Source: a virus
Lineage: Duplodnaviria > Heunggongvirae > Uroviricota > Caudoviricetes
Virus record (IMG/VR): IMGVR_UViG_2547132281_000013
Location: 1 to 21,103 of that record
DNA length: 21,103 nucleotides
Reading direction: 5' to 3' (one strand)
Below are positions 6,109 to 19,874 of the stretch, one piece after another; position 1 is the stretch's first letter; each line of letters begins with the position of its first letter. The notes below the pieces were generated by a model. It had not been told where the DNA came from. It ran no database searches and was given only the letters and a program-made list of their open reading frames with translations. The translations under genes and the position numbers were made by a program.

Positions 6109-6783
6109 TTAGGCTTTGATTTTGTATCTTCTTGGTTTTCCTGAGAAAATCACTGTACCAATTATAGAGCAATTACCGTTGATCTTAATGTAAGGCTCAG
6201 GCCAATTTGGGTTTAACGCTTTGAGATAACGCTGTGTCCCATCTTCTATCAACCTTTTGAAGGTGGTTTCACCTGTATCGTGCATCAATGCAATAACATC
6301 GTCACCGTGGCAGGCAGGTACTTCAGGATCGACAAAAATCATGTCTCCCGGGCGGTACTCATCAATCATTGAATCACCTATCACCCGCAAGATATAAGTC
6401 ATTTCCCCACAGGGTACAGGGCAGGGATACGTTTCTGCTGTGCTCAAATCAACCTCAGAATATCCAACTTCTTTCCATGCTCCGGCCTGTACCCATGATA
6501 TGACAGGGACTAATGTGATTTGTTTATTAGTGATTGAAACATCAGGTTTTTTTGTGATGTTCGTTGTCTGGTGTTCTTGATCGAGCCATCCGATAGGCAG
6601 GTCGAAACATTTTTCGATGTGTCGTGCCATGCTGTCACCGATATTTTTAGTAGCACCATCTCCCATAAACCTGCTGGTCTGGGTTGGCTCGCGATCAATC
6701 ATAGTGGCAAAGGAAGAATTCCCGCCAACACCATCTCTCAGTTTTCTGGCGTTAGACCGCCGGATGTCATGGATTGTTTTCAT
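6109..6783 (-). CDS. cI: CI-like prophage repressor (N-terminal HTH, C-terminal S24 LexA-type autopeptidase)
   Basis: 224 aa. The C-terminal domain carries the S24 catalytic Ser (RVIGDSM) and a downstream Lys (TTFKRL). Divergent from a Cro-like gene across an operator-bearing intergenic region. Confidence 0.85.
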   Translation of the reverse strand: MKTIHDIRRSNARKLRDGVGGNSSFATMIDREPTQTSRFMGDGATKNIGDSMARHIEKCFDLPIGWLDQEHQTTNITKKPDVSITNKQITLVPVISWVQAGAWKEVGYSEVDLSTAETYPCPVPCGEMTYILRVIGDSMIDEYRPGDMIFVDPEVPACHGDDVIALMHDTGETTFKRLIEDGTQRYLKALNPNWPEPYIKINGNCSIIGTVIFSGKPRRYKIKA

Positions 6784-6873
6784 AACGAAATTAAAACCCT
6801 TGTACCGTTAAGGTACAAGTGTCTTGAAGGTTCATTTCAATCATGTAATATGTACACCGGAGGTACATATTGT
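6784..6873. promoter_or_regulatory. divergent immunity control region (OR/PR/PRM-like)
   Basis: Two dyad operators TGTAC-N7-GTACA at 6801-6817 (within the 21-bp palindrome CTTGTACCGTTAAGGTACAAG) and 6851-6867. Candidate rightward promoter: -35 TTGAAG (6824-6829), 16-bp spacer, -10 TAATAT (6846-6851). The second operator overlaps the -10 and the start site. Confidence 0.55.
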
Positions 6874-7074
6874 ATGAAAGCGTATTGGGACTCTTTAACC
6901 AAAGAACAGCAGGGCGAGTTGGCCGGAAAAGTTGGCTCAACACCTGGCTACTTACGGCTGGTTTTCAATGGCTATAAAAAAGCCAGTTTTGTGCTGGCTA
7001 AAAAACTTGAGCAATGCACGTCAGGTGCAATTACGAAATCTGACTTAAGACCGGATATCTATCCGAAAGATTAG
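6874..7074 (+). CDS. cro: Cro-like HTH regulator
   Basis: 66 aa from the ATG at 6874, with GGAGG 10 nt upstream. The longer ORF-track frame (6571-) runs antisense into cI and is rejected. Confidence 0.6.
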   Translation: MKAYWDSLTKEQQGELAGKVGSTPGYLRLVFNGYKKASFVLAKKLEQCTSGAITKSDLRPDIYPKD

Positions 7075-7105
7075 CAGAACACCTTCAATTTTTAACCACA
7101 GAACG

Positions 7106-7672
7106 ATGAGGCTAACCGTGGGTAAGCATCACTGGAAAATAGAAAAACAGCCTGAGTGGTACGTGAAAGCTGTCAGAAAAACTATCGCAGCGTTGCCGGG
7201 GGGTTACGCTGAAGCAGCTGACTGGCTGGATGTAACAGAGAACGCATTATTTAACCGCCTTCGTGCCGATGGCGATCAGATTTTCCCGCTGGGATGGGCA
7301 ATGATTTTGCAACGTGCTGGTGGAACTCACTTCATTGCTGACGCTGTGGCGCAGTCTGCAAATGGCGTCTTTGTGTCTCTTCCTGATGTCGAGGATGTGG
7401 ACAACGCCGATATCAACCAACGCCTGCTGGAGGTCATTGAACAGATCGGCAGTTATTCAAAACAGATTCGTTCAGCAATTGAAGACGGTGTAGTGGAACC
7501 GCATGAGAAGACAGCAATTAACGACGAGCTGTACCTCTCAATTTCGAAGCTGCAGGAGCATGCAGCACTGGTCTACAAAATTTTTAGTACATTCAAGAGA
7601 AGTAATGACGCCCGCGAGTGTGCAGCTCCGGGCGCCGTGGCGTGTCGTGACTGTGGAGAAACTAACGCATGA
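7106..7672 (+). CDS. YmfL-like putative early regulator (CII-position gene)
   Basis: 188 aa, immediately downstream of cro. Length and position match e14 ymfL from memory. An alternative GTG start at 7121 has a better SD. Confidence 0.45.
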
Positions 7673-8007
7673 ACAGTTTAACAACACACTACCGTCGCTC
7701 GCAACTGATTGCGCTTCCTGTACCGGGTGGAAAAGCGAAGGTGGAGTATTGCTATGCAGTAAATGTACCAGGTGGCAGGGTAATTGTAACCCACAGCTTT
7801 GCAGAGTGGGCTGTGGGTGATTTTAACCGGCAAAAGGAGACAGTCCTTTGCGACAAGTTAACCGCTGGTTCAAAGATCACTACGGAGTACCCGTCAGAGT
7901 CATTCGTTGGGAGCCGGAAACACAACGGGTTATCTACCTCCGCGAAGGCTATGAGCATGAATGCTTCAGTCCGCTCGAACAGTTTCGTCGTAAATTCAGG
8001 GAAATAG
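7669..8007 (+). CDS. YmfM-like hypothetical protein, 112 aa
   Basis: ATGA start/stop coupling with the preceding gene. The 3' half overlaps an alternative-frame ORF that has a stronger RBS (next feature). Confidence 0.35.
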
Positions 8008-8027
8008 AGGTCGGTCATGAGCACTAA
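7848..8027 (+). CDS. small DUF4222-like protein, 59 aa, TTG start, in an alternative frame
   Basis: AAGGAG at 7833-7838, 9 nt upstream of TTG 7848. Product [58 protein letters not shown] is protein-like and recalled as resembling DUF4222 prophage proteins. Confidence 0.4.
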
Positions 8028-8292
8028 ATTAACCGGCTATGTATGGGATGGTTGCGCTGCATCAGGCATGAAGTTATCCAGCGTGGCAATTATGGCACGC
8101 CTGGCTGATTTCAGTAATGACGAAGGTGTGTGCTGGCCATCAATTGAAACCATTGCCCGTCAGATTGGCGCGGGGATGAGTACCGTCAGAACGGCTATCG
8201 CACGGCTGGAAGCAGAAGGCTGGTTAACGCGTAAGGCGCGTCGCCAGGGTAGAGACAACAAAAGGAGCCTGGGATGTACAGCAGACTGTTAA
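8017..8292 (+). pseudogene. N-terminal fragment of a phage replication-initiation (O-like, HTH) protein
   Basis: The first ~77 aa ([78 protein letters not shown]) look like a replication-protein N-terminus. The frame then runs into unrelated sequence and stops at 91 aa, where full-length proteins are much longer. Confidence 0.5.
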
Positions 8293-8492
8293 TCATCTAC
8301 CTGATGACGATGTTGACCGTGAGTTGCGCGAAAACTTTACCCGCAAAACCTGAAGTAACGGACACGGCCTGTGACTGGGTAAGAATCATCTACCTCACAG
8401 GTCAGGACATTGAAGTGCTGGATAAGCTTACGAAGCGGGATATTCTGGCACATAACAAAGCAGTACAGCGCAACTGTATTAGCCAGTTATGA
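8274..8492 (+). CDS. small putative exported protein or lipoprotein (possibly Rz1/o-spanin-like)
   Basis: AAGGAG 7 nt upstream of the ATG. Hydrophobic N-terminus ending in a near-lipobox (LTVSC). Position is upstream of the packaging genes. Confidence 0.3.
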   Translation: MYSRLLIIYLMTMLTVSCAKTLPAKPEVTDTACDWVRIIYLTGQDIEVLDKLTKRDILAHNKAVQRNCISQL

Positions 8493-8828: not shown

Positions 8829-10400
8829 TTACTGAGAGCTCAGATCAACTTTCCAGGGCAACAGATCGCGTACCCGGTTTGCCGGCCAGTCCTGGATATG
8901 TTCAATGACGTAACGCAGCCACTTTTCTGGCTCCACATTGTTCAGACGGCATGTGCCGATCAGCGAGTACAACACCGCCGCATGTTCACCACCGCTGTCG
9001 GAACCCGCGAACATCCAGTTTTTCCGGCCTACGGCCACTCCCCGTAAGGCGTTCTCTGCGATGTTGTTGTCGATTTCCACCCAGCCATTACTGCAGTACA
9101 CGTTCAGTGCATCCCACTGTTTCAGCAGGTATGCGAACGCTTTTGCCGTATCTGAGTGACGCGACAGTGTTTTCATCTGTTGCTGTATCCAGTCATACAG
9201 TGACTGCATCAGTGGCGCGGCTCTGGCTTTTCTTGCCGCCAGACGCTGTTCTGCTGAACAGCCCCGGACCTCTGCCTCGATGGCATACAGTTCACCGATA
9301 CGCTGCAGGGCTTCCGTGGTGATGTCGGTGGGCGCTCTTGCATGCACATCGTGGATTTTTCTCCGGGCATGAGCCATACACGCGGCTTCCGTTATTCTGC
9401 CGGATTCGTATAACGCCCGGTAACCACCGTAAGCATCGGCCTGAAGCACACCGCTGTAACCGGCCAGGTGATTTTGTGGATGGATACCTTTCCGGTCCGG
9501 ACTGTACGCGAACCAGACCGCCGGGGGCATCTGTGAACCGGCGTTACGGTCATCACGGACGTAGACCCACAGCCGGGCTGTCCGGGTTTTACCGCTGCCC
9601 GGCTCCTGGACCGGGACGGGGATATCATCAGCATGGACTTTACCGGGCATCAGCACATACTGGCGCAGGACGTCATACAGCGGCTCCAGCAGTTCAGCAA
9701 CAGCACCTGTCCAGCGCCCCAGTGTGGCACGGCTCAGCTCCACTCCCTGACGACGGTATATTTCTGACTGGCGGTATAACGGCAGATGGTCTGCATATTT
9801 CCCGGTGACAACATGGGCCAGAAGCCCCGCTCCGGCATAACTGCGTGCAATGGGTTTTGAAGGTACTGGTGCCTGCACGATATGGTCGCACCGGCAACAG
9901 GCCTGTTTCGGACGTTGTGTTTCGATAACCTTAAAGGCGCTGCTGATAAGCTCCAGTTGCTCTGACACATCACATCCCAGAGAACTGAGTTCACCACCAC
10001 AGGCAGGACAGCATTCCTCTTCCGGCCGGATAACCCGGGTTTCACGGGGAAGTGAGGCCGGTAACGGTTTACGGGCTGAAGACTGGCGCAGGGCGGATGG
10101 CAGTACCGGGTCATATTGCTCACCCAGCGTTTCCGCCATTTCTTCCTGAAGTGCGCTGATTCGCTCCTGTGCTTCCTGTATCTGCCGTTCGGTTTTTGCA
10201 CGAAGTTTTTCTGAGCTTTTACCGAACTGCATGCGCTGCAGTTTCGCAACCAGCGCCTTCAGCCGGTTGATTTCGGAAGCATAAGCCGCCACCCGCTGTG
10301 AGAGCAGGCGGTTGTATTCAGCCATCTGGCGGATGGTGTCCTGTTGCGTCTGCAACAGTGCCCGCAGGCGGGCGTTCTCATGAGCAAGTGAGGTGTCCAT
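8829..10400 (-). CDS. tnpC: IS66-family transposase TnpC
   Basis: 523 aa with an N-terminal coiled-coil/leucine-zipper region, a CxxC...C zinc-finger-like motif (CCPACGGEL...) and a DDE-type core. Confidence 0.85.
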
Positions 10401-10419
10401 ATCCTCACTTTACAACGGG

Positions 10420-10767
10420 TTATATGCGGATTCCAGCGCGTTCCGTTCGTTTCGGGTGCTTCCAGTTGATACCTTCAAGAAGCATGGATAACTGAGCCGG
10501 AGTAAGGTGCACCTTGCCGTCACGGGTGACTGGCCAGACGAAGCGGCCCCGCTCCAGGCGTTTGGTGAAGAGGCACAGTCCGTCACTGTCAGCCCACAAC
10601 ACTTTTATCTGGTCACCCCGGCGTCCGCGGAAGATGAACAGGTGTCCGGAGAACGGGTCATCCTTCAGGACGTTCTGAACTTTTGATGCCAGGCCGTTAA
10701 AGCCATTTCGCATATCGGTGATACCTGCAACCAGCCAGATACGCGAACCTGCAGGGAGAGATATCAT
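10420..10767 (-). CDS. tnpB: IS66-family accessory protein TnpB
   Basis: 115 aa, typical IS66 Orf2 (LWADSDGLCLFTKRLERGRFVWP), translationally coupled to tnpA. Confidence 0.8.
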   Translation of the reverse strand: MISLPAGSRIWLVAGITDMRNGFNGLASKVQNVLKDDPFSGHLFIFRGRRGDQIKVLWADSDGLCLFTKRLERGRFVWPVTRDGKVHLTPAQLSMLLEGINWKHPKRTERAGIRI

Positions 10768-11444
10768 CAGTGGCTGCTCCCTTTTATTTCGCGGATAAGT
10801 GTCTGTAATAACGCCGGCGTCAGTTTACCTTTAAGCCTGAGAGTTCCGGCCGGCAGAACCAGCTCACAACACAGACTGTCGGACGGTGTATTTATCTGCT
10901 CTGGTTCCTGTGCGGGGGCCGGGATTTTATTATCCGGCTCCGGCGTTAACGTCACGGGAAGCAGTGCCGGCATATTTTTTCCGGAAGGCAGCAGGCCACC
11001 TTTCCGGTATTGATGGCGCCAGTTGAAGAGCAGGTTATCGTTGATTCCGTTTTCCCGGGCGATCTGCGCCACACAGGCTCCGGGCTGCAGTGACTGCTCC
11101 ACTAAGGCGATTTTAAACTCATAAGGGAAGTTGGGCCGCCGGGGACGTTTTTTTACCACGGGGGCTTCGGATATAACGGTGCTTTCAGGACGTACGACTG
11201 GTACCGTGGAAAATTGTCCGTAAAGGCAGGCATCAAGTTCCTGCTCCGACATGCCTGCGGGCAAAGGCCACGAAAGGCCAGCTCTCCGAAAGCGCACGAA
11301 CATACTACAAACTGTTGATTTTGGTACACCCAGGCGACGCCCGGCCACAACCCGGGGTAAATGTTCTTCAAAGTGAAGACGTAAAGCTTCAGTGATCCAG
11401 GTCCGGTGTTTCATACGATAGTGTCCATTAAAAATGATGGACAT
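10767..11444 (-). CDS. tnpA: IS66-family accessory protein TnpA (HTH), with an N-terminal extension
   Basis: The C-terminal part carries the IS66 OrfA HTH (PRRPNFPYEFKIALVEQSLQPGACVAQIARENGINDNLLFNWRHQYRKG). Start is uncertain between the ATGs at 11444 and 11414. Confidence 0.7.
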   Translation of the reverse strand: MSIIFNGHYRMKHRTWITEALRLHFEEHLPRVVAGRRLGVPKSTVCSMFVRFRRAGLSWPLPAGMSEQELDACLYGQFSTVPVVRPESTVISEAPVVKKRPRRPNFPYEFKIALVEQSLQPGACVAQIARENGINDNLLFNWRHQYRKGGLLPSGKNMPALLPVTLTPEPDNKIPAPAQEPEQINTPSDSLCCELVLPAGTLRLKGKLTPALLQTLIREIKGSSH

Positions 11445-17806: not shown

Positions 17807-19696
17807 TTAATCGTGTTTTGGCCATACTTTCAATGCAATTTCCCCCAACTTTTTACCCCGCTCCAGGATTTCATCCTCATCCCATTTATCCTTAACTATA
17901 AGTGGAATGTTCAGTCGTAGATTGGTGTGGACGATGAGAGCATCACGTTTTTTCAGAAATACAGCATTCTGAACAGAACGGTTTACGCTAAGGTTAAGCA
18001 AAGTTAGATTTCCCAACGTAGCTATCGCTTGTTGCCGTTTCCTTACCAGTAGCTGTTCAGGGGTAAGATCGGTTCCAGACAGAACAATTTGGTTCAATAC
18101 CGTAGCATCTGAATTTGTCACCATATGACCATTTTCGAGAGGCCAACAGGAAAACCAACTTTGAGGCATAAGATGATCGATATCGAGATTGGAAAGATTT
18201 GGACCATCAGGCTTCTCTGTCTTCACTTGGCGACAAAGTTCTCTTTCAAGTTCCGTTAACATTGAGCGCATTTTCGGTGCGTCGAGCCTGCCAGGATAAA
18301 GTGGAGCATTGATGCAAGCATTGAGAAATTCTGAGTCACCAGGCCAACGTGAGGCTTCGCCATTTAAGCTATTGAGGATATTACGTAACTCAACACTGGA
18401 AATTTCCGTTTTAGACAAGTGCCGCAATACATTCATAAATACATTGTTGTAATTCTTTGGCGTCAGGCCACATACGGCTCTTCGTACTACGTAGGAGACA
18501 AGATCATTATACATGGCTGCTTTCTCATCATCAGCGATGTTAGCTATCGAAATGAACAAAGCAAGCGGATAAAGTGTCGTCACATCATAGTCTGCGATGC
18601 GATATCCAAAGTGTGAGATGGGGGTTGTGCCAAAACCATCAACCAATTCTTTATATTGTGATGCATATTGTTTGAGGCGCTTTACTTGCAGATCTGCTCG
18701 TTGTGAAGACAAGTCCTTACTTACATAATCACGATACTCATTGTAAAGGCGAGACAGATCAATTTCACGCTGCCTTTCTGATTGCAATGTCGCATGTACT
18801 AGCCACTCCATGCGTGGTTTATTAATACGTCCACGGCGTTGCTTTTCCGACCAGTATTTATCTTCAAAGCTCTTCCACTCATTTTCATATAATTCAATAG
18901 CATTAATATTTTCATGCTCAGCGCACATAAAGATATAGTTGCGAATAAGATCCGTGGCATGAAGTTCCGCCCCTCGCCCATTTAATGTTTCAAAAATTAT
19001 TTGGGCATCATCTTCAGCTTCGAGAAATATGCTTACCAGTTTCAGATCTGTTAAGACAGCCTCAATTAGAGCTACAGCATTTTCTTGTGGTGAGTGGTTT
19101 TCTATTTTAATCCATTTTATAAAGGCTTCAGTAAAAAAACATAATGCTTCTAGTGATGGCGGGTGATTAAAATGCTTACGCAACGTACCATGCTGCGTGA
19201 AACTATCAGAGAATACGTCCCGGAGATCGTCAATATTTTCAACATTAAAACTTTGAATAAAATGAGTTTGATCCCGAAAAGTTGGCCATAGTTTGAAGCG
19301 TTCTACTTCTTTATTTCGCATTGTGTCTTCGTTTGAGTTTTTCAGGCAAGGCGAAATGAGAGCCTCTAAGCTGAAAAGATCCGTAGCACGTAATGCTAAT
19401 CGGATGGATGCCAGAACATATTGAAGAGTGGTCAATCGTTGCTGACCATCAATAATATGTATGGAATCTACACCTAATAATCCTTTTTTTGATTGAGGTT
19501 CCAGTACAACCGCACCAAGGAAATGGGGAGTTGGTTTTGTACCCGAGAGCCGGGATTGTGCTTTCTCTAGGATATCCTCCAGTAGAGCTGACCATTGGTC
19601 TTGCTGAGTCCATACATAGGCACGTTGATAGAATGGAACACAGTATTGTCGGCGGTCTTGAAAAAGTTGTTGGACAGTTAGCGTCTCGGATTTCAT
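17807..19696 (-). CDS. DUF262/DUF1524 protein, GmrSD-like candidate type IV (modification-dependent) restriction endonuclease
   Basis: N-terminal DUF262 hallmark ...SIHIIDGQQRLTTLQYVLASI... (DGQQR). C-terminal DUF1524-type His-Me finger motifs ...LDIDHLMPQSW... and ...LGNLTLLNLSVNRSVQN.... The likely start is the ATG at 19696 (MKSETLTVQQLF...) with AGGT upstream; the maximal ORF extends to 19756 but has no RBS. Confidence 0.75.
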   Translation of the reverse strand: MKSETLTVQQLFQDRRQYCVPFYQRAYVWTQQDQWSALLEDILEKAQSRLSGTKPTPHFLGAVVLEPQSKKGLLGVDSIHIIDGQQRLTTLQYVLASIRLALRATDLFSLEALISPCLKNSNEDTMRNKEVERFKLWPTFRDQTHFIQSFNVENIDDLRDVFSDSFTQHGTLRKHFNHPPSLEALCFFTEAFIKWIKIENHSPQENAVALIEAVLTDLKLVSIFLEAEDDAQIIFETLNGRGAELHATDLIRNYIFMCAEHENINAIELYENEWKSFEDKYWSEKQRRGRINKPRMEWLVHATLQSERQREIDLSRLYNEYRDYVSKDLSSQRADLQVKRLKQYASQYKELVDGFGTTPISHFGYRIADYDVTTLYPLALFISIANIADDEKAAMYNDLVSYVVRRAVCGLTPKNYNNVFMNVLRHLSKTEISSVELRNILNSLNGEASRWPGDSEFLNACINAPLYPGRLDAPKMRSMLTELERELCRQVKTEKPDGPNLSNLDIDHLMPQSWFSCWPLENGHMVTNSDATVLNQIVLSGTDLTPEQLLVRKRQQAIATLGNLTLLNLSVNRSVQNAVFLKKRDALIVHTNLRLNIPLIVKDKWDEDEILERGKKLGEIALKVWPKHD

Positions 19697-19874
19697 GGTA
19701 TACCTGTAAGCGACATTGTACAAAAGTGAGGAGTTAATCTGATTTAGAACAATCATTTTATTTTGCTATGATACAACGTATTTGTTACCGGTTAAGCAAA
19801 AAACGCGTCTGAACGCTGACGTTTTAGGGCTTTACTGGTTATTCTTTCTTATCTCTTCATCATTGGATTTGCCC

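Follow-up and report, generated by a model that had tools for sequence, protein, structure and literature searches.

A DUF4222 gene embedded in ymfM of an e14-like prophage: a probable same-strand gene pair with asymmetric constraint

The ymfM locus of an e14-like lambdoid prophage, as found in a 21,103-nucleotide (nt) stretch of viral DNA (IMG/VR record IMGVR_UViG_2547132281_000013, positions 1 to 21,103; hereafter the window), contains two open reading frames (ORFs) that overlap on the same strand in different frames. The longer, ORF A or frame A, is the 112-codon ymfM. The shorter, ORF B or frame B, starts at a TTG within ymfM and encodes a 59-residue protein of the DUF4222 family. Comparison with related prophages suggests that the two are probably a genuine overlapping gene pair under asymmetric constraint, in which the N-terminal domain of YmfM and DUF4222 are selected for their sequence and the YmfM tail, read across DUF4222, is selected for its openness and low hydrophobicity. 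The parts of the overlap are as follows.

7669-8007, plus strand: ymfM (frame A, ORF A), ATG start, 112 amino acids (aa), with a conserved N-terminal domain and a tail over DUF4222 (PHROG 1170; K-12 b1148)
7669-7839, plus strand: YmfM N-terminal domain, about 57 codons, under amino-acid purifying selection (ratio of nonsynonymous to synonymous substitution rates, dN/dS; stand-alone homologues)
7834-7839, plus strand: AAGGAG, the Shine-Dalgarno (SD) sequence of the DUF4222 gene, N8 before the TTG (read from the sequence)
7848-8027, plus strand: DUF4222 gene (frame B, ORF B), TTG start, 59 aa (Pfam PF13973; dN/dS; WP_001250269.1 of the Prokaryotic Genome Annotation Pipeline, PGAP)
7848-8004, plus strand: YmfM tail, codons 61-112, the b2-b3-b1' frame of DUF4222 (dN/dS, openness and the predicted local distance difference test, pLDDT)
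7899-7901, plus strand: example of a stop-risk codon, DUF4222 Val18 (GTC before ATT), at which GTA or GTG would give TAA or TGA in the ymfM frame
8005-8007, plus strand: ymfM stop TAG, in frame with the replication gene and 9 nt 5' of its ATG

The two starts are offset by 179 nt (2 modulo 3), DUF4222 lies in the −1 frame of ymfM, and the ORFs share 160 nt (7848-8007). The ORF B stop (8025-8027) falls within the first codons of the replication gene, whose ATG is at 8017. Coordinates and sequence thus bear out what a first-pass annotation of the window had described, namely two overlapping ORFs in different frames, with a canonical AAGGAG ahead of TTG 7848 and a stop overlapping the replication gene start.

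The comparison drew on roughly 360 loci, taken from E. coli genomes and phage records, a single genome for each species, viral contigs of IMG/VR and contigs picked for the proteins they encode. With duplicates removed, 148 loci have a DUF4222 gene together with a YmfM-like N-terminal region; comparing their DUF4222 genes at 85% nt identity gave 19 clusters, and dN/dS was computed among 14 representatives. An extra sample was chosen through ten different DUF4222 proteins to avoid ascertainment via YmfM. The synteny of cII-like gene, DUF4222 and replication gene is held at all loci examined. In the DUF4222-chosen sample, every intact locus has an ORF beginning MNS... in the ymfM frame that spans the interval between the end of the cII-like gene and a point 10 nt short of the next gene; the part of this ORF 5' of DUF4222 is left empty by gene callers.

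By its pattern of substitutions and its start region, DUF4222 is to be regarded as a protein-coding gene under purifying selection with an initiation site of its own. ORF B matches Pfam PF13973 at 67.3 bits (E 8.6e-19), with residues 2-53 aligned to positions 3-52 of the 53-position profile. The profile search with the 59-aa product that the first-pass annotation had proposed therefore places it far above the gathering threshold of 27 bits, and the genuine DUF4222 gene suspected there is upheld. Over 7851-8003, dN/dS is 0.095 in the DUF4222 frame versus 1.8 in the ymfM frame. Amino-acid purifying selection in the overlap is thus seen in frame B and not in frame A, the opposite of the selection in the 112-aa frame alone that would have spoken against the first-pass proposal. 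Along minimum-spanning-tree branches of at most 5% divergence, DUF4222 codons in the overlap have 27 substitutions at the first position, 28 at the second and 143 at the third. The window differs from K-12 at three sites in the overlap (7889, 7949 and 7970), all silent in DUF4222 and all altering YmfM, and the K-12 copy holds an identical 59-aa ORF. The start lies exactly four codons before a conserved N/D-R-[WRHI]-[FY] motif in every lineage, the start codon itself being ATG, GTG or TTG according to lineage, and a GGAG or GAGG motif stands 7-10 nt 5' of it in all lineages. The AlphaFold2 (AF2) model of the product has a pLDDT of 82 and forms a small five-stranded beta-barrel with a short helix. 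Fold searches with this model return generic likeness to KOW, Tudor, SH3-like and DUF1653 small beta-barrels, and no hit has an E of 0.001 or below. Five loci on metagenome-derived viral contigs (L245, L273, L274, L275 and L277) have a premature stop in DUF4222 and a ymfM frame intact at full length; these stops may be real knock-outs or assembly errors.

The K-12 and phage GenBank records imply that ymfM is the only gene here and that DUF4222 is a spurious ORF within it: K-12 MG1655, SfII and PhiR49_1 annotate just the 112-aa ORF, and a phenotype has been published under the ymfM name. The frame-specific substitution pattern refutes this, and we give it practically no credence. Strong purifying selection in its own frame, the Pfam match, the conserved initiation site and a confident fold model all stand on the side of DUF4222, which is also found as a separate gene without overlap.

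The N-terminal part of YmfM is likewise protein-coding and under purifying selection. The ymfM frame has a dN/dS of 0.31 over 7672-7827, against about 1.06-1.10 for the two remaining frames; on short tree branches, 20, 21 and 59 substitutions hit the first, second and third positions of ymfM codons. Homologues of 59-68 aa stand alone in other lineages, in some cases with a separate DUF4222 gene after them. Among 1.84 billion representative proteins, a profile search resolves two main length classes of YmfM-domain proteins, of about 58-68 aa and about 108-117 aa, the remaining matches being fragments and longer ORFs such as read-throughs into Rha genes. The two length classes, together with the stand-alone forms, indicate that the domain is autonomous and that the long form arises where the domain's own stop is missing. 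AlphaFold2 models this part as three strands and two helices at a pLDDT of 55-75; a fold search with so low-confidence a model is meaningless, and sequence searches of solved structures return nothing for YmfM or DUF4222.

Two further features of the N-terminal region deserve mention. Divergence at its four-fold degenerate sites over 7672-7827 is two to three times lower than at those of flanking genes in the same sequence pairs (0.038 vs 0.072, 0.073 vs about 0.19, and 0.163 vs about 0.47). The same segment has no Rfam family match and no other coding frame, and its low divergence may stem from a recent mosaic exchange or from some nucleotide-level element not yet recognised. Residues of about 15-40 (7711-7790), a motif beginning LPVPGG, resemble the 'LPxGGxVTYCYxVxNTG' tandem-repeat unit of large secreted proteins. 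The matches of the domain to long repeat proteins, among them P0277 and P0284 (E of about 1e-6 to 1e-5, inflated by repetition) and P0211, a 17-fold repeated fragment, were judged to be chance or repeat-inflated. The likeness is probably chance, with a shared beta-strand motif as the alternative.

The evidence on the YmfM tail is of a different kind. Each DUF4222 gene was recoded synonymously, with codon usage taken from 407 flanking ORFs, and the stops arising in the ymfM frame were counted. Under this null, 37.8 stops are expected across the 19 clusters and none is found; the frame is open in 19/19 clusters against 1.5 expected. The probability of an open frame is 0.016-0.22 per cluster, or 0.016-0.29 under a stricter null in which third positions alone vary. 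The third forward frame carries 71 stops against 62 expected. Openness is also maintained within clusters, where a spanning-tree reconstruction yields 73 transversions synonymous in DUF4222, of which none creates a stop in ymfM against 15.0 expected (P = 1.3e-6). Ten single changes silent in DUF4222 that would make a YmfM stop are possible in the window. The main risk sites are Val codons before a codon beginning with A (Val4, Val16, Val18 and Val28), sites equivalent to Val18 lying at 7857-7859, 7893-7895, 7929-7931 and 7974-7976. Across the clusters all 47 of the 47 risk-site Val codons tallied are GTC or GTT, with C and T interchanging among clusters; 42% of Val codons in matching context in the flanking genes of the same loci are GTA or GTG. 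The four-fold sites of DUF4222 diverge at the rate of flanking genes.

Related phages with a different arrangement provide a control. In phages of the Morganella/Proteus type, the YmfM-like domain is either a 63-aa protein whose TGA overlaps the DUF4222 ATG (as ATGA) or is absent, and the equivalent frame of their DUF4222 genes contains 2-6 stops against 2.2-5.7 expected, with hydrophobicity and third-base composition also as expected. Two further lineages have separate genes of 61-63 aa and 59-62 aa in the same synteny. The adjacent, essentially non-overlapping arrangement of the Morganella type and these two lineages is possibly the ancestral one.

These observations bear on whether DUF4222 alone is real in the overlap, the YmfM extension over 7848-8007 being an accidental read-through of no selective value and the N-terminal domain maybe a gene. 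In favour of such a read-through, the ymfM frame is unconserved there (dN/dS of 1.8, with DUF4222 four-fold sites at the neutral rate), the tail is predicted to be disordered, the N-terminal domain stands alone at 59-68 aa in other lineages, and ymfM is not called by PGAP. A frame of this kind should, however, carry about two stops per lineage and has none in the 19 clusters, stop-creating silent changes within clusters number 0 against 15 expected, the homologous frame of non-overlapped DUF4222 genes does bear its expected stops, and the tail is biased downward in hydrophobicity. We regard accidental read-through as improbable. The first-pass annotation had taken the two frames as mutually exclusive and the 3' half of the 112-aa frame as possibly a spurious read-through, and neither idea fits these results: the YmfM N-terminal domain and DUF4222 are each under selection, and the ymfM frame stays free of stops across the overlap against a strong expectation, between lineages and within them, while the controls follow the null.

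What is retained in the tail appears not to be its sequence, since the substitution pattern is that of a segment without amino-acid constraint. Its composition is biased: given openness, the hydrophobic fraction is 0.243 against 0.320 expected and lies below expectation in 17/19 clusters, the two exceptions being loci whose frame continues into a Rha gene. AlphaFold2 assigns residues 67-112 of YmfM a pLDDT below 50, and the tail is thus predicted to be disordered.

The position of the frame-A stop points to a possible role in translation. The locus is the early-right operon of an e14-like lambdoid prophage, with the order cro-like gene, cII-like ymfL, ymfM with embedded DUF4222, and replication gene. 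The flanking features are these.

6109-6783, minus strand: LexA-like repressor gene
7106-7672, plus strand: ymfL, CII-like regulator gene (Pfam Phage_CP76; NCBIfam phage_reg_YmfL, 168 bits)
7655-7658, plus strand: GGAG, Shine-Dalgarno-like, 10 nt 5' of the ymfM ATG (read from the sequence)
8017-8250, plus strand: 5' fragment of the replication initiator gene (O-like, HTH_36; Pfam HTH_36, PHROG 11896 and 391)

The ymfL TGA (7670-7672) overlaps the ymfM ATG as ATGA at 7669-7672. Where a downstream gene is called, its ATG nearly always follows the frame-A stop by 3-9 nt or precedes it by 8-11 nt, and this spacing holds even where the downstream gene family differs; the exceptions are the Rha read-throughs L013 and L062 and the Morganella locus L021. 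DUF4222 ends 4-86 nt into the next gene, and where the arrangement is non-overlapping, ATGA overlaps link the three genes in a chain. Such junctions fit tight translational coupling along the operon, as judged from their geometry.

Frame A could accordingly be kept open for the mechanics of translation alone, so that ribosomes translating ymfM reach the replication gene start (to reinitiate after termination, or to protect against polarity), with a tail peptide that is merely harmless. Several observations would suit this: in nearly all loci the frame-A stop adjoins the downstream ATG whatever the gene, whereas DUF4222 ends anywhere from 4 to 86 nt into that gene; the tail sequence is free to vary; the three genes of the non-overlapping arrangement are chained by ATGA; and low hydrophobicity is what selection for a benign by-product would give. 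DUF4222 translation, however, already delivers ribosomes to the replication gene start, so that the purpose of a second stream is puzzling, and it is the geometry of the junctions that suggests the coupling. We see this as a distinct possibility, though one we lean somewhat against; it is also a sub-case of the explanation in which both frames are translated and not a full alternative to it.

The junction has further peculiarities. The ymfM and replication genes share one frame, separated by the TAG and three codons (8005-8019), and in-frame gaps of 9, 6 or 3 nt occur in most junction types; read-through of the amber codon would fuse YmfM to the replication protein. In L013 (E. coli O121:H19) and L062, a divergent ORF whose N-terminal domain begins MNSLTANN... 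crosses DUF4222 into a Rha-family gene, giving 388 and 553 codons. PGAP sets the Rha start within DUF4222 in loci of this type, and many database proteins of 190-390 aa are such Rha read-throughs.

A programmed −1 ribosomal frameshift, fusing the YmfM N-terminal domain to DUF4222, would be another way to use both frames. DUF4222 does lie in the −1 frame of ymfM, CAAAAG stands just 5' of the TTG in the window, and a few database proteins of 102-119 aa (P0032, P0051, P0060 and P0063) are fusions of the N-terminal domain and DUF4222. These fusions, however, differ from the window by indels, as would result from assembly errors or mutants. No X XXY YYZ heptamer is found, and the A-run (7832-7835) is unconserved, with CAGAAG in K-12 and GCGGAG in other lineages. 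Stops in the DUF4222 frame extend to about 20 nt before its start (TGA 7818-7820 and TAA 7824-7826 in the window), and DUF4222 has its own SD and start codon in every lineage. Frameshifting is very unlikely in view of these features.

In the overlapping gene pair that we favour, ribosomes would start ymfM at ATG 7669, overlapping the ymfL stop, make the folded YmfM domain of about 57 aa and then read on in the same frame across the whole DUF4222 gene. This read-on would add about 52 residues of disordered, hydrophilic tail, with TAG 8005-8007 ending translation 9 nt short of the ATG of the replication gene. A second set of ribosomes would initiate on its own at AAGGAG-N8-TTG (7848), in a frame shifted back by one base relative to ymfM, and produce the 59-aa DUF4222 beta-barrel, with a stop overlapping the first codons of the replication gene. 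Both products would then be made. We infer that the tail is retained either as a generic disordered extension of YmfM or as a means to deliver ribosomes to the replication gene start by termination-reinitiation coupling.

A number of points weigh against this interpretation. The tail sequence is unconserved, and its 'function' may be mere ribosome transit or it may be a harmless, unavoidable by-product. One DUF4222 lineage (L342-L344, on IMG/VR contigs) has no upstream YmfM domain and yet shows 0-1 stops in the alternative frame where 2.9 are expected; open runs can therefore arise otherwise. The alternative frame in this lineage encodes a hydrophobic, transmembrane-like stretch (MKTPIISIAFIWISGVSVFVSYV), perhaps another small membrane protein that has been overprinted there, or perhaps chance. 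The null model rests on the codon usage of flanking genes. The 19 clusters have common ancestry and undergo recombination, so that multiplying their separate probabilities (a summed log10 of −20.7 under the stricter null) overstates significance. The event count from the minimum spanning tree is crude, and many loci derive from metagenome assemblies. Ribosome-profiling or proteomic data for the locus were not found; the prophage is normally repressed.

Other candidate elements at the locus were considered and set aside. An antisense ORF at 7752-8024 is open in 18/19 clusters against 8.3 expected, an excess attributable to a conserved Ser fixed in the AGY codon box together with the frame-A constraint on Leu codons, and not to a third gene. 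A 105-aa ORF at 7503-7820 in the DUF4222 frame is non-coding (dN/dS of about 1.1). An Rfam scan of 6700-8400 with E up to 1 finds no RNA family, and a scan for promoters and terminators finds nothing above the shuffled expectation in the range of the two frames.

Annotation of the locus is divided. ORF A is 97.5% identical to K-12 ymfM at the DNA level (9 differences in 359 nt) and corresponds to PHROG 1170 (E 1.1e-67 over residues 1-112), with no match in Pfam or NCBIfam scans. ORF B is the RefSeq 'DUF4222 domain-containing protein' (e.g., WP_001250269.1). The K-12 MG1655 record (NC_000913.3) has ymfM (b1148, 'cell division inhibitor YmfM') but lacks a DUF4222 entry, and phages SfII and PhiR49_1 have the 112-aa ymfM annotated alone. 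PGAP calls DUF4222 at the corresponding locus in E. coli and other Enterobacterales; in the E. coli genomes it annotates, DUF4222 is listed and ymfM is not, and the 165-240 nt 5' of DUF4222 that hold the YmfM N-terminal domain are left geneless. Some Klebsiella phage records annotate the antisense ORF instead. None of the records inspected has both genes annotated together. The first-pass suspicion of faulty reference annotation is thus correct as far as inconsistency goes, K-12 and phage records giving ymfM only and PGAP giving DUF4222 only, but DUF4222 itself is not new: the gene is already known to RefSeq, and PGAP calls ORF B in thousands of E. coli genomes, the number of E. coli genomes with the locus being roughly 2,000. 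Both genes merit annotation, and databases that name one alone are incomplete.

The DNA beyond the overlap is rearranged. In comparison with L001, which has the intact replication gene, and with K-12, homology to the intact gene ceases after 8250, the O-like ORF (8017-8292) losing it right after ...CGTCGCCAGGGT (8250). This breakpoint is within about 2 nt of the point at which ymfN of K-12 e14 turns into a terminase chimera, and two different rearrangements thus share one breakpoint. Past 8250 lies different prophage DNA (a DUF6173 neighbourhood in other genomes), followed by an IS66-family element of three ORFs (8829-11444, minus strand). At the far end of the prophage region is a GmrSD-type restriction endonuclease of 649 aa (GmrSD_N and GmrSD_C; 17807-19756, minus strand).

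The overlap affects how the published ymfM phenotype is to be read. Using the ymfM ORF in pBAD24 and a ymfM deletion, Ansari et al. (bioRxiv 10.1101/2020.11.19.390815) reported filamentation and loss of the Z-ring; ymfM was found to contribute to SOS filamentation and was equated with the long-sought inhibitor SfiC. It was handled there as a single gene, and the overlapping ORF is unmentioned. The cloned 339-nt ORF takes in the SD of DUF4222, its TTG and 53 of its 59 codons, which comprise the whole Pfam domain, and the published deletion takes out most of both genes. Because clone and deletion include both frames, the phenotype belongs to the DNA segment and not yet to one protein. It is a tentative and, in our estimate, rather unlikely proposition that the SOS-inducible division inhibitor of e14 (SfiC) is the embedded DUF4222 protein or needs both products. 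If true, a Pfam family of unknown function, present in thousands of enterobacterial prophages, would gain its first function. The YmfM tail, for its part, would be a clean natural case of selection on the length and openness of a frame without selection on its sequence. Overlapping in some phages and adjacent in others, the two genes also offer a tractable example of how an overprinted coding sequence arises and is kept.

The small prophage division inhibitors Kil of lambda, KilR of Rac and DicB of Qin have been discussed with YmfM, as has SulA (bioRxiv 10.1101/2020.11.19.390815). By its published phenotype, the ymfM segment resembles these in blocking Z-ring formation when expressed, and either the domain of about 57 aa or the 59-aa protein would be typical of them in size. 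Profile, structure-sequence and fold searches found no sequence or fold relationship of Kil, KilR, DicB or SulA to YmfM or DUF4222.

The ymfM of the window is the same gene as K-12 e14 ymfM (b1148), which has the same 112-aa length and the same neighbours (ymfK, ymfT and ymfL on the 5' side, an O-like gene on the 3' side); the prophage in the window is differently rearranged downstream of 8250. ORF B is a full-length member of Pfam PF13973, a family without known function. As a gene pair, the locus can be compared with overprinted same-strand phage genes such as lambda Rz/Rz1 and the overlaps of phiX174, in which two proteins are read in different frames and one is older and strongly constrained. 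Unlike in that type, the overlapped part of ymfM lacks amino-acid conservation, the apparent selection being for openness and low hydrophobicity only, and ymfM and DUF4222 also occur side by side, without overlap, in related phages.

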